Notes under the pieces: generated by a model
Database searches by the model: none
What the model saw: only the letters and a program-made list of their open reading frames with translations
What the model was told of the DNA's origin: nothing
Part shown: one piece after another, positions 1 to 48,900 of the stretch
Layout of the letters: each line of letters begins with the position of its first letter
Position numbering within the stretch: the first letter of the stretch is position 1
Translations under genes and position numbers: made by a program
Assembly (NCBI GenBank): GCA_937893145.1
Contig: CALBJW010000011.1
Coordinates: 682 to 64,681 of the forward strand
DNA from: an uncultured Prevotellaceae bacterium
Lineage (GTDB): Bacteria; Bacteroidota; Bacteroidia; Bacteroidales; Bacteroidaceae
DNA: 64,000 nucleotides
Direction of reading: 5' to 3'

Positions 1-1456
1 GAGTGTAAGCAAGGGTCACATTGTGTTCTGGTGTCATCTTGTCAGAGAACTTATAATATTCGCTACCCATCACACCCTCACGAGTCAACATGTGAGGATA
101 GGTGCGCTCAATGCCATCAGGCTTGTAGGCACCGTGAAGGTCGAGCATCAACTCGTTCTCGGCTGTAGCCTTGATGATACGACGATACCAGTTTACCATA
201 TCCTGGTCGTCACGGTCCATGAAGTCAATCTTCACTCCCTTCACGCCCCACTTATGGTATTCAGGGAATGCCGCCTTGTACTGGTCGTTGTTGTTAGCAT
301 CTTCACAACGCAACCACAACCATATATCTACATTCTGGGCATTAGCATAGCGTATCAGTTCGGGCATATCGAGTTGAGGTGCCACATCAAGAATGTCGGC
401 TTCTGGCACGCAGTATGGTCCGTACCAAGTCCAGTCGATAAGCATATATGGCCAGTGTTCGCGAGCTGCAAAGTCGATGTACTGCTTGATGACATCCTGC
501 TCCATATTCACCTCACCACTCCACCAGTGGTCCCAGGCACACATGCCTGGTTTGATCCAAGAGGTGTTCTCCAATACACAGTCGGGATTGAGCGAACGGA
601 TTATCTCGCTCTCGATAAACTTGCCCGGATTGTTGCCCACCATCACTACGCGCCATGAGGTATTGATTTTCTCAGCAAAACGAGCCTTCACACCGTCTTC
701 CTCTTCGCCCCAGATAGGAGTGAGTTTGGTGTTGAGCATCAGGAATCCATCCTTAATCTCTGTGCTGCTACCAAGATAGAATGCAGGCCAGTTGTCGAGG
801 TCTGCCTCAAGTACTGCGAGGTAGTTGTTGCGGTCTATCTCTATGAGTCCTGGGAGTCCTGCATGTATGCTGCCCTTGATGTCGCATACAGGAGTCTTCT
901 CGAAAACTCCCTCCTGACTCGACTTGTAACTCTTGCCATCCTGCTCGTATGCGAAGTCTGGTATCCACAGACTTGACTTTGCAGGCACATTGAAACCCGT
1001 GAGTTCTCTTGTGACCTGACGATTGCCTAATACTGGAATGCCGTAAAGACCATATCTGAAAGCCACACCATCGTTCATCACACGGAATGTCACATCCATC
1101 TGGCGATACTGACCACTCTTCTCCTTGAGTACAAGAGCCAGTTCGGTGTAAGGCACCTTGCACTCCGCATGTTTATTGCGCACAACAGGAGTCCAAGCCT
1201 CCACACCCGATACGGCTTTGGCATCGTTCTTTACGGTGAAATTGCCACACATCGGAGCCTCGCCCTTCAGTTCGAATCCCATTGGAGAGGCTGCAACGAC
1301 AGTCTTACCATCGAAGTCTATGCTGTAGGTCAGGGTCTGTTGGTTGGAAACTTTGAGAGTGATGTGCTTGTCTGGCGACTGTACTTCGTATGTCTGTGCG
1401 CAGAGTTTGCCGCACAACGAGAGTAGGAAAATAGATAGAATTGTCTGTGCTTTCAT
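1..1456 (-). CDS. Glycoside hydrolase family 97 (SusB-like alpha-glucosidase/galactosidase), N-terminal 485 codons; C-terminus runs off the window start
   Basis: Absent from the ORF track because there is no in-window stop. Hand translation of the minus strand from the ATG (complement 1454-1456) is open to position 1: MKAQTILSIFLLSLCGKLCAQTYEVQ... It shows GH97-type strings (CAWDHWW, GVKGVKIDFMDRDDQDMVNWY, LDLHGAYKPDGIERTYPHMLTREGV). Plus-strand ORFs 23-658 and 393-779 are antisense shadows. Confidence 0.8.
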   Translation of the reverse strand, partial: MKAQTILSIFLLSLCGKLCAQTYEVQSPDKHITLKVSNQQTLTYSIDFDGKTVVAASPMGFELKGEAPMCGNFTVKNDAKAVSGVEAWTPVVRNKHAECKVPYTELALVLKEKSGQYRQMDVTFRVMNDGVAFRYGLYGIPVLGNRQVTRELTGFNVPAKSSLWIPDFAYEQDGKSYKSSQEGVFEKTPVCDIKGSIHAGLPGLIEIDRNNYLAVLEADLDNWPAFYLGSSTEIKDGFLMLNTKLTPIWGEEEDGVKARFAEKINTSWRVVMVGNNPGKFIESEIIRSLNPDCVLENTSWIKPGMCAWDHWWSGEVNMEQDVIKQYIDFAAREHWPYMLIDWTWYGPYCVPEADILDVAPQLDMPELIRYANAQNVDIWLWLRCEDANNNDQYKAAFPEYHKWGVKGVKIDFMDRDDQDMVNWYRRIIKATAENELMLDLHGAYKPDGIERTYPHMLTREGVMGSEYYKFSDKMTPEHNVTLAYT

Positions 1457-1510
1457 TTTTTGGGGTTCTATTAATCCCCGCAAATATCGACATTTTTGTG
1501 CAAATGTCCA

Positions 1511-1546
1511 AAAAAAAGGGCATCAAAATTGATTTGATGCCCTTTT
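1511..1546. terminator. Bidirectional rho-independent terminator-like hairpin
   Basis: The stem gggcatcaaa / tttgatgccc encloses loop attga. An A run precedes it and a T run follows. Confidence 0.6.
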
Positions 1547-1587
1547 CGGATTGTTGATATAAAGAACACGGAGACCTATACGGTCTC

Positions 1588-1738
1588 CTGGACTGAAAGA
1601 AATTAATAGAAATTAAAAGAAATTTTATCCAGAAATTATTATTTGACATAGAGTTACATTCACTCAAAAAGTAATTTCTGACCAAGCATCTATGATGCGG
1701 AAATTTCTTTTAATTTCTATTAATTTCTTTCAGTTCAG
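1588..1738. repeat. Long inverted repeat (33 bp perfect arms, extendable to ~38 bp) with a 75-bp spacer containing a nested 9-bp IR
   Basis: Arms 1593-1625 ctgaaagaaattaatagaaattaaaagaaattt and 1701-1733 (exact reverse complement). Nested IR cagaaatta / taatttctg at 1630-1638 and 1672-1680. Confidence 0.85.
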
Positions 1739-1765
1739 AACATTTCTCAAAATGTTCGTGTATCG

Positions 1766-1936
1766 TTAGAACTGGAAGTTGTTGAACTTAGCGAAGCCAT
1801 CGCCGCCGTTGTTGTATTCATCTTCCTCTTTCATGTCCTGAGCAGGTGCGCTCATAACCATGAGGTTTTCTGCTATCATATCTGCTGTTTCGAGTTCGAT
1901 GTACTCGAGTTCTGGAGTGCTATATGTCTTTTTCAT
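1766..1936 (-). CDS. Unannotated 56-aa acidic peptide, paralog A (partner of the 976-aa T9SS protein)
   Basis: Below the ORF-track size cutoff and read by hand. The ATG lies 12 nt after the stop of the 976-aa gene. Sequence: MKKTYSTPELEYIELETADMIAENLMVMSAPAQDMKEEDEYNNGGDGFAKFNNFQF. A 57-aa paralog sits in the identical position at 5104-5277. Confidence 0.6.
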   Translation of the reverse strand: MKKTYSTPELEYIELETADMIAENLMVMSAPAQDMKEEDEYNNGGDGFAKFNNFQF

Positions 1937-1948
1937 AATTTCCGAGAT

Positions 1949-4879
1949 TTACTTGATTACTTTCTTACCGTTAATAATATAAACACCCTTGACAGCGTTG
2001 TTTACACGACGACCACTGAGGTCGTAGATTACATTCTTGCCAGCCTCAGAGTCGATGGTCTCGATAGCTGTAGCGTCTTCGCTTGGGATGAACAACTTGA
2101 CAGACTGAGTGCCGCCGTATGTGAGGTATGCACGATTAGCACCAATCTTAAGACCGTCATCTGCTACACGATAGAAGCCAAGACCCTTGCTTTCCTGGTT
2201 CTGGAGAAGATAGTTGCCTGCACCTGCAGGAACATCTGTGAGAATGAATGCACCTGTGAGGAGTTCGTCTGTATAGAGGTTTTCGGTAGCGAGTGCAACG
2301 CCTGAGAGTGTAGTCTTGCTGCCGCCCTTATAATATACAATATAAGGAGTGCAAGCCTCGAACTTGTCTGCCTTTTCAAGGACTACTTCATTGTCTGCAC
2401 TAACACCTGTGGCCTTGTAAGCAGTAAAGCCTCTTGGTACATTATCTGAGTATGGGAGGATGAATGTACCATAGCCAAGAGAAGAGATATTGAGTGCAAC
2501 CTCATGCTTAGCTGCAGGAGTAACGCTAAGTGAAGTGTGAGCATTGTTGCCAGAAACACCAGCAAGGATGATGTTATTGCTTGAAGTACCGAGTGTATTC
2601 TTGCCATTGCTGATTGCAGCAACAGTTTCTACTGTATAAGAAGGCACAACTGAGAATACTGTAGCATTCTCCTTGTTAGGTGTTGTGCTGAGAGTTGTAG
2701 TACCTGAGAGGTAAACCTTATTACCATCCTTGTCGGTGATGCTCACATTGTATGTATTAACAGCTTCGCCAGCCTTCTCGAATGCTACTACCTGATGGAA
2801 GTTTGTAGAACCTGCAGCATCTGTAAACTTCATGTTGTAACCCTCGCCTGCCGAAGTGAATGTAACAGCTTTGTCGTTGATGCCTAAAGTCTCATCCTTC
2901 ATAGTGAGGTTGTAGAGACCCTTTGCTGATGGTCCCTGGAATGCCTTCTCCATGAATGTAGCTTCGATGTCAGCAAGTTTCTTGGCTGCAGCATCAATTT
3001 CTGTTGCAGACTTGCTACCACTTTCCTGAACCTTCTTGGCAGCATCCAATGCTTTCTGGTAGTTGTTCACAATAGTCTGATTGTATGTGAATGGTCTATC
3101 ATCTGTTTCCTTTGTTGCGATGTTTGCCTCTGGGATATTAGCATTAGCAACAGCATTGCCAAGTTCCTTCTCTGCACGCTTGAGCGACTTGATGTGAGTG
3201 AGGCGAACATTGTCTGCCTTGAACCAATCTTCACCAATAACATTTACGAGTGGAGTAGTTCCTCCATTAAGAACAATAAGAACAATTGATGTTTCTTCAA
3301 TCTCGAAATCACAGTTAACATCAACAAATTCGCCATTCTTAGGAGCAGCACTTCCGTTCTTAATACCACCCTTACCAATAACCTGGCCGAGGTTTGCCAA
3401 AATACCCTTAAGCACATCTCCAGTCTCACCTTTAATAATCGCACCCAAATCAATACCCTTAATTACATCGCCAAGAATACTTGTAGGAATAGTAATGACA
3501 CTAAGTTGGCAAGTTGAAGCAGTTAATCCTAATACAGAATATCTTTTAGCATTCATCAAAGCTGATGCACGATAAGCTCCTGCAGGGAGACCAATGATAG
3601 GTTGGAATATCATCTGTCCCTTATCGTGAGTGTAGTAATAATAACGATTATGTCCATTCTTCATTGCATAATAGTCTGCATTTACTACTGGGTGAGAGTT
3701 TTCAGAGAATTTGCCAAGCGAAATGGCTTCTGCAATTCCTGCAAGTCCACCTGCTGCACCTGCAGCATCTTTGCTGACTGCATTCTTAATGATTTCCAAT
3801 AAAGAACCTGCAACTTTACTTTCATCAATATCAAGAGTGTACCAACAAGACATATTGCCACGGTCGAATGAGTTGTTGCCGATAAGACCAGTGAAGTTTA
3901 CATTATCATCGAAACCGCCAAGTCCATCACCCGTAGCAAGGCGAGCAGTACAAGTTGTGCGGAGTGTTGACATAGCAGCATCCATTGCCTTTGTATCAGT
4001 AGCAATCTGAAGAGCACCCTTTGCCACAGTACAAGCCGCAGGAACTGCACCGCCCATAGCTTCTGCCTCTTCAATTTCTCGCATACATGCCTGATAGTAG
4101 TCAGCTATTGCTTCAAATTCTGCAATCTTGTTTTCGAGGTCTTCTGTAGCCTTGTTGATATCATCTACAGAAGCAGGACGGAGAGACCAAGAAGTTGCTC
4201 TACGCTTCACATCCTGAGCAGCGAGTTTCTGTACTTCAATCGCAGCCTTACCCGCAGTTGTCATTCCTTCCATCTTCATTGCCTCATCAGCATGTGCAAT
4301 AGCCTTGTCAAGACGAGCAAGAGCATCTTGTTTTGCTGCAGGACTTGCATTGTATTCGGATACACTTACAAGTACCCAAACATTATTCTCGTCGGAAGCA
4401 TCGTTTGTACAAGCAAATGCACCATCATTTACTGTAAGATAGCCTGTGTAAGAAGCTGAATTACGATTAAATGCACCGTATTTCCATGATTCTGTCTTAC
4501 TAAACTTGTAACCGTCCTCTGCAGAACCAGTGAAAACGAGTTCAGTTTCTTCTCCATCGAAAGAGGCACTTGTACTCTTAGGAGTAGCACTTCCAAAAGT
4601 ACCACTATTTGCTTCAATTTCAATGGAAGCAAATTTACCATACTTGTTCTGGAGCTTACAAGTGCTTTCTGTTACTGTAGCAGTGAAAGCAAGTGGCGAA
4701 CCCTCTGCGAGAGTTACATCTTGCGAAACGAACAAGTTTGTAGCCTTATTCAAAATGTAATAAGATGCACCGTCCTCAAGAGTTTGAGGAGTCCATGTCT
4801 GCTGTGCTAATGCCTGATGACCTATGAAAGTGCAGCATAGCAACAGCCATAAAGAAAGAATTCTTCTTTTCATAATCAT
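1949..4879 (-). CDS. Large T9SS-sorted secreted/surface protein (976 aa), paralog A
   Basis: Signal peptide MIMKRRILSLWLLLCCTFIGHQALAQ. The C-terminus ...VIYDLSGRRVNNAVKGVYIINGKKVIK fits the T9SS type-A sorting domain pattern. A central FTGLIGNNSFDRGNMSCWY...FKADNVRLTHI module looks jelly-roll/CBM-like. It is collinear with the C-terminal ~950 aa of the ORF at 5290-9537. Confidence 0.8.
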   Translation of the reverse strand: MIMKRRILSLWLLLCCTFIGHQALAQQTWTPQTLEDGASYYILNKATNLFVSQDVTLAEGSPLAFTATVTESTCKLQNKYGKFASIEIEANSGTFGSATPKSTSASFDGEETELVFTGSAEDGYKFSKTESWKYGAFNRNSASYTGYLTVNDGAFACTNDASDENNVWVLVSVSEYNASPAAKQDALARLDKAIAHADEAMKMEGMTTAGKAAIEVQKLAAQDVKRRATSWSLRPASVDDINKATEDLENKIAEFEAIADYYQACMREIEEAEAMGGAVPAACTVAKGALQIATDTKAMDAAMSTLRTTCTARLATGDGLGGFDDNVNFTGLIGNNSFDRGNMSCWYTLDIDESKVAGSLLEIIKNAVSKDAAGAAGGLAGIAEAISLGKFSENSHPVVNADYYAMKNGHNRYYYYTHDKGQMIFQPIIGLPAGAYRASALMNAKRYSVLGLTASTCQLSVITIPTSILGDVIKGIDLGAIIKGETGDVLKGILANLGQVIGKGGIKNGSAAPKNGEFVDVNCDFEIEETSIVLIVLNGGTTPLVNVIGEDWFKADNVRLTHIKSLKRAEKELGNAVANANIPEANIATKETDDRPFTYNQTIVNNYQKALDAAKKVQESGSKSATEIDAAAKKLADIEATFMEKAFQGPSAKGLYNLTMKDETLGINDKAVTFTSAGEGYNMKFTDAAGSTNFHQVVAFEKAGEAVNTYNVSITDKDGNKVYLSGTTTLSTTPNKENATVFSVVPSYTVETVAAISNGKNTLGTSSNNIILAGVSGNNAHTSLSVTPAAKHEVALNISSLGYGTFILPYSDNVPRGFTAYKATGVSADNEVVLEKADKFEACTPYIVYYKGGSKTTLSGVALATENLYTDELLTGAFILTDVPAGAGNYLLQNQESKGLGFYRVADDGLKIGANRAYLTYGGTQSVKLFIPSEDATAIETIDSEAGKNVIYDLSGRRVNNAVKGVYIINGKKVIK

Positions 4880-5035
4880 ACATTAAATTATAATTGTTAG
4901 TAGTAATAAATGCGTTAGTGGCGTAAGGCGTTAGTGGTATGCCTAATAGCTTTAGTGGTTATATTGAATGCGCAAAGATACGATAAATTATTTTAAATGA
5001 AAGAAAGAGACCATGTTTTTTGTCGTTTTATATAT

Positions 5036-5071
5036 AAAAAAGGTGTTGCCGCGAGTGCGACAACACCTTTT
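5036..5071. terminator. Rho-independent terminator after the 1415-aa gene plus peptide B
   Basis: aaaaaggtgttgccgcgagtgcgacaacacctttt is a GC stem flanked by A and T runs. Confidence 0.7.
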
Positions 5072-5103
5072 CATGATGTTATAAAGAATAGTTTCCTTAT
5101 TCG

Positions 5104-5277
5104 TTAGAACTGGAAGTTGTTGAACTTGGCGAAGCCATCGCCACCGTTTGTATATTCTTCAACTTCCTCAGACTGCTGCACTGCATGAGAACTATCAATA
5201 ACAGGGAGTTCTGCAATCATGTCTGCTGTTTCGAGTTCTACATACTCGAGTTCTGGAGTGCTATATATCTTTTTCAT
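5104..5277 (-). CDS. Unannotated 57-aa acidic peptide, paralog B (partner of the 1415-aa T9SS protein)
   Basis: Read by hand; the ATG lies 12 nt after the stop of the 1415-aa gene. Sequence: MKKIYSTPELEYVELETADMIAELPVIDSSHAVQQSEEVEEYTNGGDGFAKFNNFQF. The N-terminal 23 aa and C-terminal 14 aa are conserved with paralog A, while the middle diverges. Confidence 0.6.
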   Translation of the reverse strand: MKKIYSTPELEYVELETADMIAELPVIDSSHAVQQSEEVEEYTNGGDGFAKFNNFQF

Positions 5278-5289
5278 AATTTCCGAGAT

Positions 5290-8200
5290 TTACTTGATTA
5301 CTTTCTTACCGTTAATAATATAAACACCCTTGACAGCGTTGTTCACACGACGACCGCTGAGGTCGTAGATTACATCCTTACCTGCTTCTGAATCGATAGC
5401 GTCGATGCCTGTTGCATCTGCATCAAGAGAGAACATCTTGACTGACTGAGCACCATTGTACATGAGGAATGCACGGTTAGCACCAATCTGGAGGCCCTTG
5501 TCTGCTACATAGTAGAAGCCAAGCTTGTTATTGTTGTTCTGGAGGAGGTAATTGCCTTGATTCTCAGCAACAGGTGAGAGTTCGTTAGCGCCCTTGAGGA
5601 TGCCTTCTGTGTAGAAGTTCTGAGTAGCGAGTGCAACACCTGAAAGTGTTTCTTTCTTGCCACCTTCTGCAGAGACGATGTAAGGAACACAAGCCTCAAA
5701 CTTGTTAACCTCTTCAAGAACTACAGCATTATTCTCAACGCCTGTAGCCTTGTAAGCCTTAACGCCTGAAGGAATCTCAGCATCGTAAGGGAGCATGAAT
5801 GTACCCCAACCGAGTGAAGAGATATTAAGATCTACATTGTGCTTAGCTGCTGGAGTAACTGCGATAGTGCTGTAAGTTCTACTGCCTGATACACAAGCAA
5901 GAGTATTAGAGTTGTTGGCTACACCAAGTGAACGATTGCTATTGTTGAGAGCTGCCACTGTTTCTACTGTGTAAGAAGGAATGACTGTGAACTTTGTAGC
6001 ATCATTAACATTTGGTGTTGTGCTGAGGGAAGTAGTACCCTTGAGATAATCCTTATTGCCATCAACATCTGTGATGCTTACAACATAAGTATTAACTGCT
6101 TCGCCAACATGTTCGAAACCAACTGCCTGATGGTAGTTTGTAGAACCTGCAACATCTGTGAACAACATGCTGTACTGATTGTTGAGATTCTTGAAAGTAA
6201 CAGACTTGTCTGTGCAGTTAGCACCAGCATCCTTGATAGTGAGGTTGAAGAGACCGTCTGCTGTAGGACCCTGGAATGCCTTATCGAAGAATGTAGCAGA
6301 GAAGTCAGCGAGTTCAGAAGCTGCCTTGTGCATGTCGATAGTTGAGTTAGAACCCTTATCCTTGAGAGCCTGAGCAGCATCGTTGAGAGACTTGTACTGG
6401 TTAACGAGAGCCTGGTTGTAAGTGAATGGCTTATCGTTGCTTGTTTTGGCTGCGATGTTAGCCTCTGGGATATTAACACCCTTGAGAGCAGCAGCAAGTT
6501 CATCCTTAGCACTCTTACGAGACTGAGTCATGACGAGACGAACATTATCAGCACGGAATGGTTCTGCACCTACGAGTGGGAGTGCAATACCAGAGTTGAG
6601 CACGAGGATTACGATAGCGCCTTCTTCGATTTCAAACTCTACAGATACCTCTTCAAACTTGTTGCTTGACTGAGGATTGTTGCTGCCTGTCTTGAGAGCA
6701 CCCTGAGAGATGATAGTACCCATACTACCAATGACACCACGAAGGAGGTTGCCCATGTTAGTTGGGTCTGTAATATCGATATTGCCAATGATGTCGCCAA
6801 GAATATTTGTTGGGACAACGATTGCACTGATATAGTTCTGGAATGCAAGACCGCCAAGCAATGTGTTAGAAGTCATGAGTGCAGAAGCCTTGTACGAACC
6901 TGCAGGAAGACCAATGAGTGGCTGGAATACTGGCTGACCTGTTGTACCAAGTCCACCGACGATACCACCATTCTGAGTGTTGTAGTAGAAGCGGTTGTGT
7001 CCTTCTGCCACAGCATTAGGAGCTTCGTTCACAACTGGCTTTGAACCATCTGCGAAGTCCTGAATCTTAACAATACCTGTCAATGCACCAAGACCACCGC
7101 TTGTAATTGCACTCCACAACTTAGTCAGGTCTGATTCGAATGACAATGTGTACCAACCTGCCATCGAACCGAAGTCGAATGAGTTGTTAGCGATAAGACC
7201 TGTGAAGTTAGTGTTGTCCTTGAATGGAGTAAGATCGCCAAGGAGTGACTGACCAGCTACCGCTGCTGCTGCCGCAATGCGGAGAGTAGTGATTGCAGCC
7301 TCCATTGCTTCTGGAGTATTAGCCGCCTCGAGTGCTGCACGAGCTATGGCAACCTCAGCAGAAACGATACCACCAAGACCATTGATTTCTTCAAGTGCTG
7401 TAATAGCTGCATTGTAGTTAGGGAGCAGAGCCTTCATGTCCTCTATTGCCTTGAAGAGGGCATCGGCAGTATTGTTCATAGAAGAAATTGTAGTTGTTGG
7501 AAGACCAGAAACAGTCAAAAGGTATTGAGCTGCTGTACGCTGAGCAACAACATTTGTCACAGCACCAAACAATGGGCCACCATCCTGAAGAATCTCATTA
7601 GCTGCTGCTACAGCCTCCTGAAGGCGCGCTACCGCATCCTTTCTTACTGCATCACTACTGTTGTACTCTTCTTCGCTTACAAGAACCCAAACATTATATG
7701 AGTCAGACTCAATAGTCTTCTCTGCAAGAGTAGCAGAATTACCTGCTGGAAGAGCAGAAAGATATGTCTTGTAAGTTGCTTCCTGACGCAAGCCACCGAA
7801 GAAACCACCATACTGCCATGTTCTCTGAGTACTCAAAAGGTATCCATCGTTAGCTTCTGTAACTGTGAAGTTAGTCTTAGAACCTGTAGGAGAAACCGTA
7901 ATAGAAGTTGGAGTACCCTGACCACCTGTACCAAGAAGACCTTCATCTACATTGATTGTAAGGTTGAGGTATGTGCCATCCTCATTCTTGAACGCGTATG
8001 TACCATCTTCGTTTGCTTCAGCTGTAAATACCATTGAACCGTGGTCGAGCATAGTATTTGAACTGCCAATGAAGTAGCCTGTTGCCTTGTTTATGAAGAG
8101 ATAATTAGCACCATCTTCAAGAGCAACTGGTGTCCAATCCTTTGAAGGGTCTGTAGTAGTAAAGAGGTTTACATTTGTGAGTTCAGCACCGTTCACATTG

Positions 8201-9537
8201 ATAGTATAGTTGCCAGCCTCCTTAGTATAGAATACATAAGAATAAGAAGCACTCTGTTCTGCATTTGGAGCAGCAAAGCGTACTACCTCATTACCGTTAC
8301 CATCCTTGATGGTTACTGTAGTAGTACCTGTATAGTTGAATGTCAACTTATATGCCTGATTGCCCTTGAGAGGCATGATGTTGTTTGGAGCATCATTACC
8401 ATAAACATCTGTGATAACAGTACCAGCTTCAACGGCATTAACCTCACGAGAGTTAGCCTCCCATACTTTACTATCTGTATTCCAGTCAAAAGGATTAAGG
8501 CTATTTGCTCTAAGATTATTATAAAGTGTATTGGCCTCTTCTTGAGAATAGTTTGCTTCATTTGCTATAATATCAAGAGCTTTAGCATAGAGAGCACGAT
8601 ACTCTTTACCTGTGTATGGAGCATATTCGTTTCTTGCAAAACCAAGTTTTGCTTCTGCAGTGGCAATAATGCCCTCTGCGTATGTAATGCCCTTCTTCAA
8701 GTTGTCAAGGCTAAGAGCCTTCTTTGTTGTACCACTTACTGGAATAACGATTGACTTATCGCCTACGGCAATTGTTACATTTCCGCTATGAGAAGCAGAA
8801 GAAACATTTCTACCAAGAGTAGGAGTATTATAAGTAATTACAATTTCTGTAGTTGTTGGAGCACCATTACCACCTTCAATTGTAGCAGGAGATACAGTGA
8901 AGATGTTATTATCACTACTTACTGTTACATCTCCTAAACGAGGTGAATAGTTGAGAGCTACAACGATTGTTGGTTGGTTACCAGTTACAACATTACCAAA
9001 TTCTGCCGACTCCTTGTCTGCCGAGAATGTGTTATCATACTCCTCTGCTTTAACGAAAATCCAACGAGCAGTACCGTCGTTAGCATTTTCTGCAATGGCA
9101 ATTGTATTTTCTGCTGTTGCAGAAACATAGCGTGCAGCCCTTGATAAACCGCCTGTCTGGACTGTAGCATTGAGAGTGTAGTAATTCTGATTACGACCTC
9201 TGTTCAAAACATTGACTGGAGATGCAGCATTTGTAGCGACAGACACAACCCAATTCTGGTTGAAAAGAGTTCCTGTGTTTATACTTGTCACACTAATGTA
9301 CTTCTCATCCTGTGACTTTACAGCACTTCCTTCCACAGTCCATGTGGTAGAAGGGTCTGCACTCAAAGTGTTGTTATCGTTGAGATAAGTCTTTGTCCCA
9401 ACATTGTAGAGGTAATACTCAACGCCAGCTTGAACTTCTTCAAACTTAGGTTGCCATCCCTCATTCTGCGCCATTGCCCGATTCCCCACTAATGAGCAGC
9501 ATAGCAATAGCATTAACGAAAATAATTTTCTTTTCAT
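5290..9537 (-). CDS. Large T9SS-sorted secreted/surface protein (1415 aa), paralog B with ~470-aa N-terminal extension
   Basis: Signal peptide MKRKLFSLMLLLCCSLVGNRAMAQ. The last 28 aa are identical to paralog A (T9SS CTD). It shares the FTGLIANNSFDFGSMAGWY...FRADNVRLV module. The extra N-terminal region repeats the W..V...EEY lectin-like unit. Confidence 0.8.
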   Translation of the reverse strand: MKRKLFSLMLLLCCSLVGNRAMAQNEGWQPKFEEVQAGVEYYLYNVGTKTYLNDNNTLSADPSTTWTVEGSAVKSQDEKYISVTSINTGTLFNQNWVVSVATNAASPVNVLNRGRNQNYYTLNATVQTGGLSRAARYVSATAENTIAIAENANDGTARWIFVKAEEYDNTFSADKESAEFGNVVTGNQPTIVVALNYSPRLGDVTVSSDNNIFTVSPATIEGGNGAPTTTEIVITYNTPTLGRNVSSASHSGNVTIAVGDKSIVIPVSGTTKKALSLDNLKKGITYAEGIIATAEAKLGFARNEYAPYTGKEYRALYAKALDIIANEANYSQEEANTLYNNLRANSLNPFDWNTDSKVWEANSREVNAVEAGTVITDVYGNDAPNNIMPLKGNQAYKLTFNYTGTTTVTIKDGNGNEVVRFAAPNAEQSASYSYVFYTKEAGNYTINVNGAELTNVNLFTTTDPSKDWTPVALEDGANYLFINKATGYFIGSSNTMLDHGSMVFTAEANEDGTYAFKNEDGTYLNLTINVDEGLLGTGGQGTPTSITVSPTGSKTNFTVTEANDGYLLSTQRTWQYGGFFGGLRQEATYKTYLSALPAGNSATLAEKTIESDSYNVWVLVSEEEYNSSDAVRKDAVARLQEAVAAANEILQDGGPLFGAVTNVVAQRTAAQYLLTVSGLPTTTISSMNNTADALFKAIEDMKALLPNYNAAITALEEINGLGGIVSAEVAIARAALEAANTPEAMEAAITTLRIAAAAAVAGQSLLGDLTPFKDNTNFTGLIANNSFDFGSMAGWYTLSFESDLTKLWSAITSGGLGALTGIVKIQDFADGSKPVVNEAPNAVAEGHNRFYYNTQNGGIVGGLGTTGQPVFQPLIGLPAGSYKASALMTSNTLLGGLAFQNYISAIVVPTNILGDIIGNIDITDPTNMGNLLRGVIGSMGTIISQGALKTGSNNPQSSNKFEEVSVEFEIEEGAIVILVLNSGIALPLVGAEPFRADNVRLVMTQSRKSAKDELAAALKGVNIPEANIAAKTSNDKPFTYNQALVNQYKSLNDAAQALKDKGSNSTIDMHKAASELADFSATFFDKAFQGPTADGLFNLTIKDAGANCTDKSVTFKNLNNQYSMLFTDVAGSTNYHQAVGFEHVGEAVNTYVVSITDVDGNKDYLKGTTSLSTTPNVNDATKFTVIPSYTVETVAALNNSNRSLGVANNSNTLACVSGSRTYSTIAVTPAAKHNVDLNISSLGWGTFMLPYDAEIPSGVKAYKATGVENNAVVLEEVNKFEACVPYIVSAEGGKKETLSGVALATQNFYTEGILKGANELSPVAENQGNYLLQNNNNKLGFYYVADKGLQIGANRAFLMYNGAQSVKMFSLDADATGIDAIDSEAGKDVIYDLSGRRVNNAVKGVYIINGKKVIK

Positions 9538-9754
9538 AGCTATAAAAATTAATAAAATAAGTTAGCTTCGATTAGTCCATACATTAAGAGTTAGATAGCT
9601 GCTTGGAGTTAGTTAAGAGCCAGTTTCACTACAAAACGTATCAGAGTCGTCTATAATTTTTGCAAAAATACAGATATTATTCCTAAAAACAAAGCGTTAT
9701 ACACCTTATTTTATATATAAAGGCCCTCTTTCCATCGAAAGAGAGCCTAAAATG

Positions 9755-10786
9755 CTAGTTATTTATGTTTTTTGACAAGTCTTCGGAGAGTTGGGAAGCT
9801 TGCGTGCCTTTCGCCACAATCTTATGCTTTTTGTCAATCAAGAAATATGTGGGCACTTCGCTTACACCAATCTGCTTAAACGGTTTGGAGTCGAAAGCAC
9901 GAGGGTCGCAATAATGCTCAATGGTGGTGAGGCTATCAAAACGAGTCATGTTGCGCCAGCGGTCATATTCATTGTCGATTGAGAAAGCCACGATACGCAA
10001 CTGCGACTTGGTGTTGTCATTGGATGCCTGTCGAAGCTTACTCATGAACTCGTACGATGATGTTATCCATGTGGTCCAGCAAAGGAAAAGGGTAAGCTGA
10101 CTATCGGTCGTGGACCAGAGTGCGGTCTTCTTCCCTTCCACACCTGGTAATTTGACATCAGGGAATGTGTCGCCGATGTTCAGTCCCTTGATAGCCTTGA
10201 CCTGAGCCTCAAGAGTCATGAAGTAAGGTTGTTCCTTGTGGACAGGACGAAGCATCTCAAGCACTTCGGTAAGCTCCTTATATGTAGTCTGTGCATTATG
10301 CACAAAGTAGCGTTCAAACAAATAAAGTGACACAACGGACTCAGCATGTTCGGACATGAAACGACGAGCCTTTGCTTGTGTGTCGGAATAGGAGGCATTC
10401 TGTATGTCGGAACGGAACTGATTCATCAGTTTGTTCTCTTCATTACCCGATGCCTTGTAGTTGTTGAGGGCACTTGAAACCGCATCGTACTCCACCTCAT
10501 CGCCAGGACCGATGAACACTACCTGTTCAAGGGCATTAGGGAAGAGGATGATGTAAGGGGTTGGTTCGGCTGCCACACCGCCGTAATGGAATTTGCCAGA
10601 CTCAATGCGCAGCGTGTCGAAACGTGCATTGTCGTCTAACGTATTGAAGATGTATATCTCACCGGTCTCCATACCGTCGATGGAACCGTTGAAACGAAAA
10701 GAATCACCACTTGGTCCGCACCCCACAAAAATGAGGAGTGCGGCAAGTGATGAAACGTAGAGTGATATTTTCTTATAAGAAATCAT
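9755..10786 (-). CDS. TlpA/thioredoxin-like lipoprotein (DUF4369-type N-domain) lacking the CxxC active site
   Basis: Lipoprotein signal ...LLIFVGCG. The fold pattern is TlpA-like, but the position of WCxxC reads LFLCWTTWITSSYEF. Confidence 0.6.
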   Translation of the reverse strand: MISYKKISLYVSSLAALLIFVGCGPSGDSFRFNGSIDGMETGEIYIFNTLDDNARFDTLRIESGKFHYGGVAAEPTPYIILFPNALEQVVFIGPGDEVEYDAVSSALNNYKASGNEENKLMNQFRSDIQNASYSDTQAKARRFMSEHAESVVSLYLFERYFVHNAQTTYKELTEVLEMLRPVHKEQPYFMTLEAQVKAIKGLNIGDTFPDVKLPGVEGKKTALWSTTDSQLTLFLCWTTWITSSYEFMSKLRQASNDNTKSQLRIVAFSIDNEYDRWRNMTRFDSLTTIEHYCDPRAFDSKPFKQIGVSEVPTYFLIDKKHKIVAKGTQASQLSEDLSKNINN

Positions 10787-15707: not shown

Positions 15708-16718
15708 TCAATTCTTCCGTACTATCAGTTTGTAGAAGAATCGAACTACCTTGCCGAGAGGGGTGTAGCGAATGCCCCAATCCTTGATGGCTTCGGTGAA
15801 GAGTTGTTCGATGTGTGGGTCTTTCTGCGGGTTATCTACCTTCACTAAATGGATTGGTTCTTGGAGAGGTTCGCGGTCGAATTCGTACCATTGGAGGAGG
15901 TCGAAGCTCTTGAAGTGGGTACCGTTCTTGAGACCTATGTTGCGAACCATAGTGCGAGAAGGGGTGAGGCAGAGTCCGCCAGCCTTGTAGATGGCGAGTT
16001 CCCAACAGATGTCCCAAGGGATAGGACGCTTGTCGAGACTCTTGAGGCATGGGAATACTCCTCCGTACTGGATGGCATTGATGTCATCGGGTGTCATGCC
16101 CTGGAGTGCTTCTTCGCGAGTGTTGAAGTGATGGAAATATTTCTGCCAGCGGTCACGCCATGTGCCCCATCCCCAACCTGATGGGTGAGGGGTGAAGTAG
16201 AAGCCCCTTCCTACCCCTCCACAAGGGGAGGGAACTCCACCCGGATGGTGATCGCTGCGCTTGGCTGTCCCCTCCCTTTGGGGGAGGGTTAGGGAGAGGT
16301 TTGTGAATCCACTCACATGCATAACCTTCTCTACATCTTGGTACATATCGAAGGCATCGTTCATGTATTGAAGGTAGTAGGGAGATGTGCAGATGTCGTC
16401 TTCGAGGACTATGATGCGGTCGTGAGTCTCGAAGACTTGGGCAATGCCTTCGGTGATGTTTCGTTCGAGGTAGATATTCTCTGGACGCTCTATAATGGTC
16501 ATGCTTCGGAGGGCATGAGTCTGATTGATATCTTTTTGAACCTTATGCAGATAGGTGCGCACTTCGTTCACCATGCGCCACGACTCTTCGTTCTTGCCTC
16601 CATCGGAGAAGACATAGAGGTCGGTCTCCGCAGCAAGGGTGTTGCGAAGAAGGTGTTCAATGGTCTTCTGGGTGTTGTCCGCACGATTATAAACGAACAT
16701 TGCTACGGGTGCTGTCAT
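15708..16718 (-). CDS. GT-A fold glycosyltransferase carrying an in-frame GC-palindrome insertion
   Basis: MFVYNRADNTQKTIEHLL...DLYVFSDGG...IIVLEDDI fits a DxD-type GT. Residues ...TLPQREGTAKRSDHHPGGVPSPCGGVGRGFYF... are encoded by two CCCCTCC(C)-N4-GGGGAGG(G) hairpins. Confidence 0.7.
   Translation of the reverse strand: MTAPVAMFVYNRADNTQKTIEHLLRNTLAAETDLYVFSDGGKNEESWRMVNEVRTYLHKVQKDINQTHALRSMTIIERPENIYLERNITEGIAQVFETHDRIIVLEDDICTSPYYLQYMNDAFDMYQDVEKVMHVSGFTNLSLTLPQREGTAKRSDHHPGGVPSPCGGVGRGFYFTPHPSGWGWGTWRDRWQKYFHHFNTREEALQGMTPDDINAIQYGGVFPCLKSLDKRPIPWDICWELAIYKAGGLCLTPSRTMVRNIGLKNGTHFKSFDLLQWYEFDREPLQEPIHLVKVDNPQKDPHIEQLFTEAIKDWGIRYTPLGKVVRFFYKLIVRKN
16214..16288. repeat. Two GC-rich hairpins inside the GT coding sequence
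   Basis: cccctcc-acaa-ggggagg (16214-16231) and cccctccc-tttg-ggggaggg (16269-16288). The reading frame is preserved. Confidence 0.8.
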
Positions 16719-17398
16719 AGATATTGTTCAAGGAGTTTGGTGTCCGACTTATATGTTATCTTCATGCAAGCCTCATCGCCATCAACGATGTGGACAGGGA
16801 TGTCGGGACGATAGCGGAGGACTATGCCGCAGTCGTCCGTTGCCTTGAAGTCTGGGTCTTGCAGTCCTATCTCGTAGGCATTGCGGATGATGCTGATGTC
16901 GAAGCCCTGTGGTGTCTGAGCGCGACGGAGGGTACTGCGGTCTGGCACACTCTTTATGATGCCATCTTCGATGAAGAGAATAGTATCAACTGATGGTTGT
17001 GCTACTCCTACAGCTTGACAAGTTTGAAGTTTCAGAACCACATCATCTATTATCTTCTGAGTGACAAGTGGGCGAGCCGCATCGTGGAAGATGAGGTTGC
17101 AGTCTTCATCCTTGTAAGCATTTATGGCAGAGAGACTTGAGTCGTAGCGTTCTTTGCCTCCTACGAGTATTCTTTGCAACTTCTTCCAACTGTTGTTTGA
17201 GGCTATTTCTTGCATAGTCTCTACATTGTCAGCACTTACCACAACGGCTACTTCATCAATATTCTCGTTCTTGTCAAATGCATCGATGGCATATTCGATG
17301 ACCATACGACCACGAATCTCAAGATATTGCTTCGGCACATTCGTACCCATTCTTTTGCCCGAACCTCCAGCCAAGACTATAGCGATGTTATGTTTCAT
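16715..17398 (-). CDS. IspD/TarI-family cytidylyltransferase (probably CDP-alditol/sugar-phosphate activation for the glycan locus)
   Basis: IAIVLAGGSGKRMGTNVPKQYL...FHDAARPLV...AQTPQGF are present. Its start and stop overlap the flanking flippase and GT genes, so they are co-transcribed. Confidence 0.75.
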   Translation of the reverse strand: MKHNIAIVLAGGSGKRMGTNVPKQYLEIRGRMVIEYAIDAFDKNENIDEVAVVVSADNVETMQEIASNNSWKKLQRILVGGKERYDSSLSAINAYKDEDCNLIFHDAARPLVTQKIIDDVVLKLQTCQAVGVAQPSVDTILFIEDGIIKSVPDRSTLRRAQTPQGFDISIIRNAYEIGLQDPDFKATDDCGIVLRYRPDIPVHIVDGDEACMKITYKSDTKLLEQYL

Positions 17399-18837
17399 TT
17401 TTTCTTCAATAAAAAGTTAAGACACTCCTTCAATATGTTTGCACCAAGCAACCACAACGCAGCAAAATAGATAAAAGCCGCGATAATAATGCGGGAGATG
17501 AGCAGAACATATAGATTTTCAATGCTTTGTGTTAGGAAATATGTTGCAATCATTGTACCTGCCGCTATTGTAAGGAAAGGCACAATGTCCTTGATGGCTT
17601 GAACGAAACCAAAACTTATCTCTCTCCACACAAAGAAATGCCAAACGCCAATCCACAACACTACGATGCAGACATACGCCCACACCATAGTTTCAACACT
17701 TCCCCCACACTGCTGAATGCCAAGTACGGTACTCAAAAGGATGACTCCCTGACAAATGACATTCCACATATATATATTGGACTTTCCACGAGAGATAATC
17801 ATGTTGAAATAGAGGGTTGCGATAGGGAGGAATGCTCCACCGATACAAAGTATTCGCATGAGATTGGCAGACTTGAGCCACTTGTCCGTGATGAGTGTCT
17901 CGATAAATTCTGGCGAGATAAGTGATAGCCCAAACATCACAGGAAAAGAAATGAAACAGGTGAACCTCAGCATCTTACTGAATGCTCGGCACAAGCGTTC
18001 TGGGTCATCGCCCACCTGTACGAATGTTGGTTGTGCCACTCCCTGTACCATACCTGTAATGGTTGATGCACCCATCGTATTCCACTTGTTTGCCTGATTG
18101 TATCGTCCTACTACATTCTTATCATAGAAACGACCAAGCACTACGGAGAAGATGTTGTTGTTCACTTGGTTAACGATGTTGGTAATGAGCATCTTGCTTG
18201 AGAATCCAAACATCTCACGGATTGGTTGGAACGACACTTTTAAGGATGGTTTCCAGCCACTCAACACCCAACTCAACACACTCACGCAGAGGTTGAAGGT
18301 GATGGTTTGTGTTGCCAATCCCCAGTATGCCATTCCTTTATAAGCCATAACGATACCTACCGTACCCGACACAAGCAATGATGTCAAACCCATTATAGCA
18401 AGTTCCTTCTGCTTTATCTGCTTTGCAAGTATGGCTCTTGGCACAATGCTGAACGAAGCAATGAAGAAACCGAAGAAGCAATAGCGCGATAATGGTAACA
18501 GCAAAGGTTCATTATAGAAGTCTGCTATGAGTGGAGCACACAGGAAGAACAGCACATAAAGCGAGAAACTGACACATATATTGAACCAAAATACGGAGTT
18601 GTAGTCCTTATGCGTAGCACCTTTCTTGTTGATTAAGGCTGTAACAAAACCACTATCCTGCAACGAGTTGGCAATAAGTGTGAAGATTGTCAACATACCG
18701 ATAAGACCGTAGTCCTCCTCACAGAGTTTACGAGCAAGCACAATGCCGAACACCGCATTCAGTATCTGCGTTGCCCCATTGTTGAGTGCTGCCCAAAAGA
18801 GTCCTTTCGCTGCCTTATCTTTAAGATTTTCTGCCAT
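17395..18837 (-). CDS. Wzx-type polysaccharide flippase (MOP superfamily)
   Basis: A 480-aa polytopic membrane protein. The N-terminus KGLFWAALNNGATQILNAVFGIVLARKL is typical of polysaccharide biosynthesis (Wzx) proteins. Confidence 0.75.
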   Translation of the reverse strand: MAENLKDKAAKGLFWAALNNGATQILNAVFGIVLARKLCEEDYGLIGMLTIFTLIANSLQDSGFVTALINKKGATHKDYNSVFWFNICVSFSLYVLFFLCAPLIADFYNEPLLLPLSRYCFFGFFIASFSIVPRAILAKQIKQKELAIMGLTSLLVSGTVGIVMAYKGMAYWGLATQTITFNLCVSVLSWVLSGWKPSLKVSFQPIREMFGFSSKMLITNIVNQVNNNIFSVVLGRFYDKNVVGRYNQANKWNTMGASTITGMVQGVAQPTFVQVGDDPERLCRAFSKMLRFTCFISFPVMFGLSLISPEFIETLITDKWLKSANLMRILCIGGAFLPIATLYFNMIISRGKSNIYMWNVICQGVILLSTVLGIQQCGGSVETMVWAYVCIVVLWIGVWHFFVWREISFGFVQAIKDIVPFLTIAAGTMIATYFLTQSIENLYVLLISRIIIAAFIYFAALWLLGANILKECLNFLLKKK

Positions 18838-18855
18838 TGTACATTTATTTTAGTG

Positions 18856-18863
18856 CAAAGATA
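18856..18863 (-). promoter_or_regulatory. -7 box TATCTTTG (minus strand) for the wzx operon
   Basis: Matches the Bacteroidetes TAnnTTTG consensus, about 20 nt upstream of the ATG. Confidence 0.5.
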
Positions 18864-18872
18864 ACTGTTTTA

Positions 18873-18993
18873 AGTGAAGAGTGAAGAGTGAAGAGTGAAG
18901 AATTTGCTTCCGCAATAGTATTTTTGCAGGTGATTCCTATCTTTTTTCTCTTCCGGCAGGAAATTCTTCACTCTTCACTCTTCACTCTTCACT
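18873..18993. repeat. 33-bp perfect inverted repeat whose arms are (AGTGAAG)x4 heptamer arrays, 55-bp spacer, in the wzx/licD divergent promoter region
   Basis: Left arm 18873-18905 agtgaagagtgaagagtgaagagtgaagaattt. Right arm 18961-18993 is its exact reverse complement. Confidence 0.9.
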
Positions 18994-19001
18994 AAAATTT
19001 G

Positions 19002-19009
19002 TAATTTTG
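19002..19009 (+). promoter_or_regulatory. -7 box TAATTTTG for licD
   Basis: TAnnTTTG, 17 nt upstream of ATG 19026. Confidence 0.5.
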
Positions 19010-19025
19010 CACAAAAATACAAATT

Positions 19026-19826
19026 ATGGCATTTGACCCCAACGAATTAAGAGCAAAATATAATCCCGTCGGCTCTACTATATATAAAATGCAGATGCGA
19101 ATGCTCGAGATACTCGAGGAGATAGACAAGATCTGCAGTCGTCACGGCATACCTTACTGGTTGTCGGGTGGTAGTATGCTTGGTGCTGTTCGTCATCAAG
19201 GCTTTATCCCTTGGGATGACGACCTTGACATTGAGATGCTTCGTCCCGACTTTGAACGACTTATGAAGATTCTGCCCAACGAACTGCCAGAGCATCTTGC
19301 ATTGCAATGGCACACTACAGACAAGAACTACTTCTTCCAGTTTGCTAAGGTTCGTGACCGCAACAGCCAACTCTTTGAACGAAATGGATACGACAAGGTG
19401 TTCAAGGAACATGGCATTTGGGTTGACATCTTCCCTCTCGAAGCCACTCCTCGTTGGATTCACAACCTCTCAAATCTCACATTCGGACACACATACAAGA
19501 TGATGCGAACAGCACAAAATCCAGAGTCTGCGATGTGGAAGGTCAGAACTCTTGCTGCTATAAACCGTAACATCATCTTCCCCGTACTCAGAGGATTATC
19601 AAAGATTTTCCGTACTCCATACTACGACTTTGCTCTCGGCATTCCATACTTCCAGAAGAGTCTAAAGGAGGACTACTTGCCTGTTCGCAGAGTGAAATAC
19701 GAACACACCTCCGCCCTCATCATGAAGGAGGCAGAGAAATGTCTTGCATACAGATATGGAGACTATATGCAACTACCTAAGAATCCTGGTTCGGAATACC
19801 ACTCGGATGACATCAAGATTTGGTAA
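19026..19826 (+). CDS. LicD-family phosphotransferase (phosphocholine/alditol-phosphate transfer)
   Basis: YWLSGGSMLGAVRHQGFIPWDDDLDIEM is the LicD signature. Confidence 0.8.
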   Translation: MAFDPNELRAKYNPVGSTIYKMQMRMLEILEEIDKICSRHGIPYWLSGGSMLGAVRHQGFIPWDDDLDIEMLRPDFERLMKILPNELPEHLALQWHTTDKNYFFQFAKVRDRNSQLFERNGYDKVFKEHGIWVDIFPLEATPRWIHNLSNLTFGHTYKMMRTAQNPESAMWKVRTLAAINRNIIFPVLRGLSKIFRTPYYDFALGIPYFQKSLKEDYLPVRRVKYEHTSALIMKEAEKCLAYRYGDYMQLPKNPGSEYHSDDIKIW

Positions 19827-19831
19827 GATGC

Positions 19832-23871: not shown

Positions 23872-23880
23872 ATCGCAAAA

Positions 23881-46604: not shown

Positions 46605-46632
46605 CCCAGCGGAAAAGCGCAGGGAACGGTGG
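46605..46632 (+). repeat. Prophage intergenic hairpin repeat, copy 6
   Basis: cccagcggaaaagcgcagggaacggtgg; starts 11 nt after stop 46593. Confidence 0.8.
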
Positions 46633-46682
46633 TAACAAAACGGCGAGTCGATGACTCTCCGAACATAAACAAAATAAACAAT

Positions 46683-48788: not shown

Positions 48789-48900
48789 TGTTTGGTTGGG
48801 AATTAAAAAGTTCGTACATTTGCAGTTAGAAAAAAGATGATGGAGGTAACACGTGCCCAATGGGCTTAGGACCCGGGTTAACGCATTCCACCATCTTTTT

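Follow-up and report, generated by a model that had tools for sequence, protein, structure and literature searches.

Large carbohydrate-binding surface proteins provide gut and rumen Bacteroidales with a main hold on polysaccharides, and how the short C-terminal tails of such proteins are handled is poorly understood. [quoted passage not shown] This review describes no accessory gene for cargo of type A. Here we analyse a 64,000-nucleotide stretch of contig CALBJW010000011.1 from an uncultured Prevotellaceae bacterium (hereafter the window), in which two genes for predicted large surface proteins, A and B, are each followed by the gene of a small acidic peptide, the trailer peptide. With modest confidence, the evidence favours a peptide that is tied to the large protein and carries a leader-type docking motif. 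We tentatively propose, as a possibility that falls short of even chances, that it is a companion resembling the precursors of peptides that are synthesised on ribosomes and modified post-translationally (RiPPs), with a leader-type strand docking a partner akin to the RiPP recognition element (RRE) encoded elsewhere, followed by processing or export, and with a lineage-specific working end. By the tests run, the peptide does not belong to the lasso peptides, to the double-glycine peptides or to any known family of chaperones.

The link between peptide and large protein was assessed on ten distinct cassettes from nine Bacteroidales loci (winA and winB in the window, and L003, L004, L012, L017, L018, L019, L022 and L023). 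In all ten, 8-100 nt separate the peptide from an upstream gene whose product has the same short basic tail at its end. The shared upstream module comprises a beta domain ending ..ANRAYL, a short linker and the tail ..(I/V)YDLSGRRV..KG(V/I/L)YI(I/V)NGKK(V/I)xxK. The N-terminal parts of the upstream proteins vary widely, the L003 protein aligning with protein A only in the C-terminal 480 residues, at 28% identity. Since the same tail ends only 5 of the 91 open reading frames (ORFs) of at least 150 aa in loci selected for holding homologues, the ten-out-of-ten linkage is far beyond chance. As to the question whether the peptide always follows a T9SS-CTD gene, raised in an earlier reading of the sequence alone (the sequence-only reading), the upstream gene has this common C-terminal tail in all ten cassettes. 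The distances from the stop of the large gene to the start of the peptide were as follows.

winA and winB: 12 nt
L001 and L002 (two related assemblies): 11 or 12 nt
L003: 13 nt
L004: 13 nt
L012: 35 nt
L017: 8 nt
L018: 16 nt
L019: 55 nt
L022: about 100 nt
L023: 17 nt

The link is not obligatory in the reverse direction, as the tail can occur without the peptide. L009 encodes a full-length large-protein homologue with an intact tail and no peptide. At L008 the tail is truncated by a convergent gene and no peptide is found, and homologues with other C-termini at L010 (a dockerin) and L016 also lack it. We also observed that the gene following at L009 (12416-14500, 694 aa) has this tail at its end in truncated form (..GEAYDLSGKKLAK), likewise without a peptide behind it.

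In the window, the sequence-only reading had described a duplicated two-gene cassette with an identical 12-nt spacer, and its coordinates were confirmed exactly. It had also called the peptides unannotated: no source names them, but gene callers predict both (collection entries P0004, 57 aa, and P0023, 56 aa). The components of the two cassettes are listed below.

5290..9537, minus strand: gene B for a predicted large surface protein of 1415 aa (ORF and translation), with a Sec signal peptide (cleavage between ..AMA and QNEGW), several beta-rich and helical modules and a conserved C-terminal module ending ..VIYDLSGRRVNNAVKGVYIINGKKVIK
5290-5436, minus strand: basic tail of protein B, matching that of protein A
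5278..5289, minus strand: 12-nt spacer from the gene B stop to the peptide B start, ATCTCGGAAATT (sequence)
5104..5277, minus strand: trailer peptide B, 57 aa, net charge -9, pI 4.1 (ORF and translation)
5036..5068, minus strand: G+C-rich hairpin with T-run (GGTGTTGTCGCACTCGCGGCAACACCTTTTTT), 36 nt 3' of the peptide B stop (read directly in the sequence)
1949..4879, minus strand: gene A for a predicted large surface protein of 976 aa, with a signal peptide (cleavage between ..ALA and QQTW) (ORF and AlphaFold2 model)
1949..2095, minus strand: short basic tail of protein A, the last 48 residues, ..ATAIETIDSEAGKNVIYDLSGRRVNNAVKGVYIINGKKVIK, resembling a secretion C-terminal domain
1937..1948, minus strand: 12-nt spacer from the gene A stop to the peptide A start, ATCTCGGAAATT (sequence)
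1766..1936, minus strand: trailer peptide A, 56 aa, net charge -8, pI 4.05 (ORF and translation)
1514..1546, minus strand: terminator-like hairpin (GGGCATCAAA..TTTGATGCCC and T-run) ending the gene A-peptide A transcript (inverted repeat and sequence)

A six-frame regular-expression scan of the 64 kb matched the motifs M[KR][KR]x[YFW]xxPx[LIVM] and GGD[GA][FL][AV][KR] at these two sites only. Because of this result and of the mostly synonymous substitutions at both conserved peptide ends, the cassette pattern is not due to chance. The hairpin at 5036..5068 is likely the end of the gene B-peptide B transcript; it was not listed by a simple terminator scan, and a counterpart was found in both L001 and L002, where the gene B orthologues (1418 and 1409 aa) have the same synteny. 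Behind peptide A, positions 1588-1738, between the peptide stop and the hairpin at 1514..1546, are taken up by an element of 151 nt whose terminal inverted repeats are 38 nt long and 97% complementary. It looks like an insertion resembling a miniature inverted-repeat transposable element, because in L001 and L002 the equivalent hairpin starts within about 15 nt of the peptide stop. The element is present as a single copy within the window.

The small ORF is a real, constrained coding sequence under purifying selection. Alignment of both copies confirmed that the ends are shared, with N-terminal MKK(T/I)YSTPELEY(I/V)ELETADMIAE and C-terminal NGGDGFAKFNNFQF on either side of a divergent acidic middle. 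Between the paralogous peptide ORFs, the ratio of non-synonymous to synonymous divergence (pN/pS) was 0.32 overall, 0.12 in the first 23 codons, 0.48 in the middle and 0.00 in the last 14 codons, where two synonymous changes and no replacement were counted. The same pattern was obtained for orthologous peptide pairs. Close relatives of the peptide (68-91% identity) occur in several assemblies and, using exhaustive and word-indexed profile searches, distant relatives were detected at 28-45% identity (P0007, P0008, P0009 and P0010). The peptide is thus kept well outside this strain, down to 28% identity, as regards the search in other Bacteroidales that the sequence-only reading had proposed. 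No confirmed locus was found with the peptide motif among GTDB species-representative genomes, nor any match to the GGDG pattern in JGI metagenomes, in which the N-terminal pattern recovered five loci; the viral contigs and plasmids searched yielded nothing.

The anatomy of the peptide was deduced from the alignment of 13 Bacteroidales members. The conserved block is formed by the first 25 residues, MKKxY(S/N/I)xP(E/A)Lxx(V/I)x(L/V)....(M/L)IAxS, and is followed after residue ~25 by a variable, fast-evolving acidic Gly-rich linker. The C-terminus is a short acidic/aromatic segment conserved only inside sub-groups (GGDGFAKFNNFQF in the window copies and ..NLWDxxW elsewhere). Six lineages exhibit the C-terminal type GGDG(F/L)(A/V)(K/R)..N(F/L)(W)D..(W/F), and others end in ..DVWED, ..NAWGEDDEEDME or ..GNSGDVR. 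All members are acidic (net charge -2 to -12, pI 4.0-4.5). No signal sequence was found in the two window peptides, whose highest 12-residue Kyte-Doolittle hydropathy is at most 1.0, in line with the sequence-only reading. Apart from a sub-threshold signal for the lasso precursor model NF033528, the family has no match in Pfam or NCBIfam, and nothing meaningful was recovered when PDB sequences were searched with the peptide profile. A literature search on small genes behind type IX cargo, on the tail sequence and on RRE or lasso peptides in Bacteroidales gave no description of the peptide family. These three-part peptides of ~50-65 aa are undescribed and unnamed.

The best-conserved block of the cassette is formed by the tail, the spacer and the N-terminus of the peptide. 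Measured in 60-nt windows, the paralogs are 97-98% identical between positions of about -83 and +37 relative to the large gene's stop, versus 58-79% in flanking windows, which bears out the near-identical junction reported from the sequence alone. The same pattern was observed in L001 and L002. Synonymous divergence (pS) was 0.31 at the peptide N-terminus versus 0.89 in the middle. Two other explanations of the junction were rejected. For an RNA element, the fold z-score was -0.38 and no Rfam match was found (1-10000, E up to 1). An antisense ORF crossing the junction on the plus strand (1860-1982, with a hydrophobic product of 40 aa) is contradicted by antisense frames that differ between the copies and by a 1-nt spacer deletion in copy B of L001 and L002, which would interrupt every ORF running across the spacer. 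Antisense ORFs crossing the junction are listed in different frames for each copy (1860-1982, plus strand, 40 aa; 5185-5391, plus strand, 68 aa) and are probably spurious. With these two and stop-codon read-through (see below) set aside, the lower pS at the peptide N-terminus fits a short gene-conversion tract plus protein constraint. The near-identity is best explained by gene conversion over a ~120-nt tract together with protein-level constraint, which joins both terms of the alternative formulated in the sequence-only reading, gene conversion or strong constraint.

The two large proteins are 50% identical overall and 65% identical over their last 350 aa, and neither belongs to a Pfam or NCBIfam family. 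The AlphaFold2 model of protein A (mean pLDDT 73) was divided into the following parts.

Residues 39-172: beta-rich N-terminal domain
Residues 173-317: helical region
Residues ~330-565: jelly roll resembling a carbohydrate-binding module (CBM)
Residues 566-646: helices
Residues 656-760: beta domain
Residues 783-920: beta domain
Residues 927-976: low-confidence basic tail

Foldseek matched its several jelly-roll domains with CBM16, CBM6, CBM51, meprin MAM and Cry-toxin domains and found no catalytic fold in protein A. From this model we read proteins A and B as probable large carbohydrate-binding or adhesin-type surface proteins. In both, the A-x-A signal-peptide cleavage site is followed by Gln (ALA then QQ, AMA then QN; 4790-4879 and 9450-9537, minus strand). 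The predicted exposure of Gln after cleavage fits the Bacteroidetes 'Q-rule' as stated in PMC5837995 and PMC10653852. The family is rare: a collection of 5.8 billion proteins gave eight matches and, among species-representative genomes, the module was found only in two metagenome-assembled genomes labelled 'Bacteroidaceae bacterium', which are the peptide-less loci L008 and L009. A side observation concerns P0018 (L010 132-2018, 628 aa), which matches the middle of the window proteins with 40% identity and carries a dockerin end, not the Bacteroidales tail; it suggests an exchange of this module, and of genes of the cassette, between Bacteroidales and cellulosome-type (dockerin-bearing) bacteria.

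The sequence-only reading had labelled the large proteins as T9SS-sorted. In favour of this label, the tail bears a weak resemblance to a T9SS CTD, and the profile built from nine tails weakly matches the RgpB T9SS C-terminal domain 5hfs (E 0.056) over ..FDMNGRRV..GVY. Against it, PF18962 and TIGR04183 gave no match for the whole proteins, for their last 87 or 191 residues or for the nine aligned tails (E up to 10). Two PDB chains that carry the same short tail, 4kca_A (E 3e-7) and 7jvi_A (E 9e-6), are matched by the tail profile at their extreme C-termini. The last 27 residues of protein A have a net charge of +5, and residues 927-976 were modelled with short strands only at pLDDT ~42-57, using a shallow nine-sequence alignment. 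No Por, Gld or Spr gene was found among the scanned ORFs of the window. From its motifs, the tail looks like a compressed version of the type A domain with B-, D- and E-like motifs. Sorting of the large proteins by the T9SS is plausible but unproven.

The YxxPxL string singled out in the sequence-only reading forms the core of the most conserved segment of the peptide, with Y5 and P8 invariant and L10 nearly so across the family. The only signal from curated models came from NF033528, which matched the first 10-11 residues of three peptides with E-values of 0.02-0.16; peptide A scored 14.9 bits over residues 1-10 only, for a cut-off of 33, and peptide B and five Bacteroidales relatives had no match. 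What we take to be the paeninodin precursor sequence scored 16 bits over residues 1-17 of the family profile, which is a lead and not a test. Lasso precursors have a Thr at the penultimate position of the leader and a core starting with Gly, Ala, Ser or Cys, with Asp or Glu at position 7-9. In the 13-sequence alignment, neither a conserved Thr column after the motif nor a consistent core start was found. Membership of the lasso type fails on the penultimate Thr, on the curated models and on neighbouring genes B (PqqD/RRE with a protease) and C (a cyclase of Asn-synthetase type), of which the Pfam-scanned window ORFs and the gene calls of L001-L003 and L012 contain none. The Gly-Gly pair, noted in the sequence-only reading ahead of the conserved tail, also looks unlike the site of a double-glycine leader: it lies at residues 44-45 behind a polar/acidic stretch (..EEDEYNN), no NCBIfam bacteriocin-leader model matches, and it is not a family feature, as it is not conserved in L012, L018, L019 and L022.

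Look-alike peptides were found in a different genomic context. P0011, a weak profile match (E 3.4), lies directly behind a gene for a secreted protein of 2204 aa at L005-L007, and a second peptide of the same type lies on the other strand behind a paralogous protein of 2314 aa. These peptides (MKKxYxxPELxxIKFSLxDV..) are preceded at the right distance by GGAGG-type ribosome-binding sites, because of which the organism is probably a Firmicute. They score 19.5-29 bits against the Bacteroidales profile over the N-terminal 18-27 residues only. Divergently from one of the two giants runs an operon with the following products: a protein of the PqqD family (PF05402), which lasso-type PqqD models match at E 1e-8 but below their cut-off; an S26-like peptidase; an uncharacterised 223-aa protein; and an ABC exporter. 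Two further look-alikes lie on short contigs, L020 and L021, and the C-terminus of the protein upstream at L021 resembles that of the L006 giants. The giants upstream of look-alikes are unrelated proteins, with a C-terminus that is non-basic and quite different from the Bacteroidales tail. The recurrence of a peptide behind a giant secreted protein that lacks the Bacteroidales tail argues against the N-terminal motif reading this tail. The adjacency of the PqqD-family gene is suggestive rather than conclusive. We also noted that at L005/L006 (1-2700 and 3367-19587) the two paralogous giants converge on two leucine-rich-repeat (LRR_5) genes; the locus may represent an undescribed RRE-dependent peptide system.

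In the precursor-like reading that we tentatively favour, the peptide would be made from the transcript of the large gene, probably by ribosomes re-initiating 8-17 nt past the stop of the large protein. Its N-terminal segment would be a YxxPxL-type docking strand for a recognition protein of PqqD/RRE type encoded elsewhere in the genome; processing or export of the peptide would fall jointly to this partner, a peptidase and an exporter. The function proper would reside in the lineage-specific C-terminal segment, in concert with the surface protein expressed alongside it, and the peptide would not be a free-standing bacteriocin. An AlphaFold2 model of the peptide alone, built with the family alignment, has no secondary structure and a pLDDT of 59, and the disorder that this predicts would be expected of a docking or leader peptide. 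The coding constraint, the distant relatives, the linkage in ten cassettes, the YxxPxL motif, the look-alikes beside the PqqD-family operon and the exchange suggested by P0018 are further points in favour of this reading.

Several observations weigh against the precursor-like reading. The linker between the 'leader' and the 'core' is long and acidic, which is unusual. No curated RiPP precursor model was matched above its cut-off, and the peptides have neither a conserved penultimate Thr nor the Cys/Ser/Thr pattern of known cores. The position of the peptide behind this particular tail is left unexplained, and at L009 an intact tail is found without a peptide. The look-alikes have no more than the N-terminal 18-27 residues in common with the family, and their recovery relied in part on a search pattern derived from this very motif; the PqqD adjacency is one independent case from a different phylum. 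As the sequence-only reading had stated, no maturation enzyme or peptidase-linked ABC exporter is present in the window: Pfam scans of essentially all large ORFs detected no PqqD/RRE, radical-SAM, cyclase or C39 peptidase gene and no other peptidase-linked ABC exporter, the sole ABC-type component being a MacB/FtsX-type permease. The same genes were absent from the gene calls within at most ~10 kb upstream of the peptide in L001-L003 and from those on either side of it in L012, several of these contigs ending shortly after the peptide. Predicted RiPP precursors located far from clusters are reported to be common in human microbiome genomes (PMC11953309), so that the missing neighbours weaken the precursor-like reading without excluding it.

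A second explanation, which we regard as doubtful while giving it some weight, is that the peptide is a cytoplasmic escort or chaperone. The acidic peptide would attach to the basic tail while the surface protein is nascent, through beta-strand addition or charge pairing, and keep this tail soluble, protected or correctly timed until export by Sec strips the peptide off; it would be made one-for-one with its substrate from the same mRNA end. Analogues would be VirE1, which serves VirE2, and the type III chaperones of class I, all of them small, acidic and encoded beside their substrates. The window peptides have comparable traits (56/57 aa, pI 4.05-4.08, a position 12 nt behind the large gene and no hydrophobic segment). 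All ten cassettes have the same tail, with spacers of 8-17 nt in seven of them, a spacing that fits translational coupling, and the charge of the peptides (-2 to -12, pI 4.0-4.5) is opposite to that of the tails (+4 to +6). The conservation of the block joining tail, spacer and peptide N-terminus points the same way, and the pLDDT of ~50 for the tail alone and the predicted disorder of the peptide alone both fit folding on binding. However, the place where the tail would act, the periplasm or the outer membrane, lies beyond Sec, and the peptide has no signal peptide. Moreover, its most conserved part recurs in look-alikes behind non-basic C-termini and is unlikely to read the tail, the L009 homologue has an intact tail and no peptide, and no covariation between tail and peptide was visible in the ten pairs. 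No chaperone is described for type IX cargo in the review (PMC10202324), from which the word is absent.

Less probable still, and in our view unlikely, is a cross-phylum 'trailer peptide' system, in which the peptide would be a two-part adaptor always encoded behind very large secreted surface proteins. Its N-terminal strand would dock a common machine for recognition or export, made of PqqD/RRE, peptidase and ABC components, and its lineage-specific acidic/aromatic end would engage the cognate giant or its tail.

We consider it quite unlikely that the peptide is a regulatory micro-protein, which would report the complete translation of the long upstream ORF and feed back on the cassette or on related genes, or that it is a cell-cell signal coordinating the production of surface proteins. 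Its position on the same transcript, directly behind genes of 1000-2300 aa in two phyla, would suit such a role; the short linear sequences at the acidic/aromatic C-terminus (FNNFQF, NLWDEEW, DLDSLLP) resemble motifs for protein interaction, and an ABC exporter adjoins look-alike cassettes. Yet no regulator is conserved beside the cassettes and no target is indicated by the data. This role is further weakened by the fact that we know of no peptide signalling system of this kind in Bacteroidales.

That the ORF is a non-functional hitch-hiker, kept similar only as part of a gene-conversion or recombination tract among paralogous surface-protein genes, is very unlikely. The near-identity of ~120 nt at the junction with its reduced synonymous divergence, and the absence of the peptide behind some homologues (L008, L009), could be understood in this way. 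But in relatives with 28-45% identity, in unrelated contexts and behind different spacers, the reading frame is uninterrupted and keeps its three-part pattern; its 14 C-terminal codons have no non-synonymous change despite synonymous ones, and ribosome-binding sites are suitably spaced in the look-alike loci.

It is highly improbable that the peptide inhibits, or confers immunity to, a toxin or enzyme domain of the large protein, as in polymorphic-toxin arrangements. A small acidic gene does lie immediately 3' of a large secreted-protein gene, but the C-terminal 350 aa of the large proteins are their most conserved part (65% versus 50% overall) and not a variable toxin module, no toxin or catalytic domain was found with Pfam, NCBIfam and the fold search, and the peptide is predicted to be disordered and has only 56 aa. 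Finally, extension of the large protein by stop-codon read-through, to which both window copies would lend themselves by being in frame (TAA and four codons apart), has a negligible probability and was rejected, as the spacer is 11 nt in copy B of L001 and L002 and 8, 13, 13, 16, 17, 35, 55 and ~100 nt elsewhere, all out of frame.

Beyond the cassettes, the Pfam content of the window comprises a thioredoxin-like lipoprotein, a TPR protein, the MacB/FtsX permease, a polysaccharide-biosynthesis locus, housekeeping genes and a Mu-like prophage. The surface-polysaccharide locus (15708-24885 and 30185-32201) contains four paralogous Acyl_transf_3 genes in series (19832-24885) with a Core-2/I-branching-type glycosyltransferase between them, as well as a LicD gene, an IspD-like cytidylyltransferase and a flippase, which suggests as its product a heavily O-acylated glycan decorated with phospho-alditol or choline. 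The prophage extends over ~38400-64000, and the following components were identified.

41930-43981: ORF of 683 aa with no Pfam match, which might be the transposase
44067-44939: AAA_22
46629-47336: DUF3164
48213-48860: virion morphogenesis protein
48901-50241: Mu F-like protein
50235-51611: Mu portal
55018-56049: ClpP-type protease
59316-63092: tape-measure protein

A conserved, unnamed micro-protein locked to the tail points to a missing component in the handling of these surface proteins. Should it be RiPP-like, it would exemplify a modified peptide that shares its expression, and probably its action, with a particular surface protein; were it an escort, such cargo would gain its first chaperone-like factor. 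Were the cross-phylum adaptor to be true, it would be the first known cargo-specific accessory factor for type-IX-like cargo and would connect RiPP-type recognition with the biogenesis or function of giant adhesins. Either way, the tail and the trailer peptide together make a simple genomic marker.

Compared with type A CTD cargo such as RgpB of Porphyromonas gingivalis, the window proteins are likewise Bacteroidales, Sec-exported and multi-domain, and their tail (..YDLSGRRV..G(V/I)YI..KKVxK) resembles motifs B, D and E. It has ~45 residues, whereas the type A CTD is a seven-strand domain of 70-100 residues, and its AlphaFold2 fold is not confident. Furthermore, a small gene behind the cargo gene is not described for the type A class. 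Type B CTD cargo provides a precedent for a cargo-specific adjacent partner, its gene lying beside the cognate PorP/SprF (PMC10202324). However, PorP/SprF proteins are outer-membrane beta-barrels of several hundred residues with signal peptides, and the partner found here is an acidic peptide of 56 aa without one.

VirE1 and the type III class I chaperones are, like the window peptides, small, acidic, cytoplasmic and encoded in the same operon as a substrate with a positively charged terminal signal. They have no sequence or fold similarity to the window peptides (Pfam, NCBIfam, PDB), and their substrates are taken straight from the cytoplasm, whereas the substrate here would first cross Sec. 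With double-glycine leaders of the peptidase-containing ABC transporter (PCAT) systems, the window peptides share a Gly-Gly preceding a conserved C-terminal segment. The leader of the former, 15-25 aa long, has a hydrophobic -4/-7/-12 pattern that the window peptides lack, and no C39 transporter lies near the latter. Finally, lasso and other RRE-dependent precursors differ from the trailer peptides, which have no recognisable macrolactam core, in the window copies have a long acidic linker, and occupy a strict position behind one kind of secreted-protein gene that is not a known RiPP trait. The two groups are nevertheless alike in being short and without signal peptide, with an MKKxYxxPxLxxxxL N-terminus that is conserved while the rest diverges, and the look-alikes of L005-L007 adjoin a PqqD-family gene, a peptidase and an ABC exporter.

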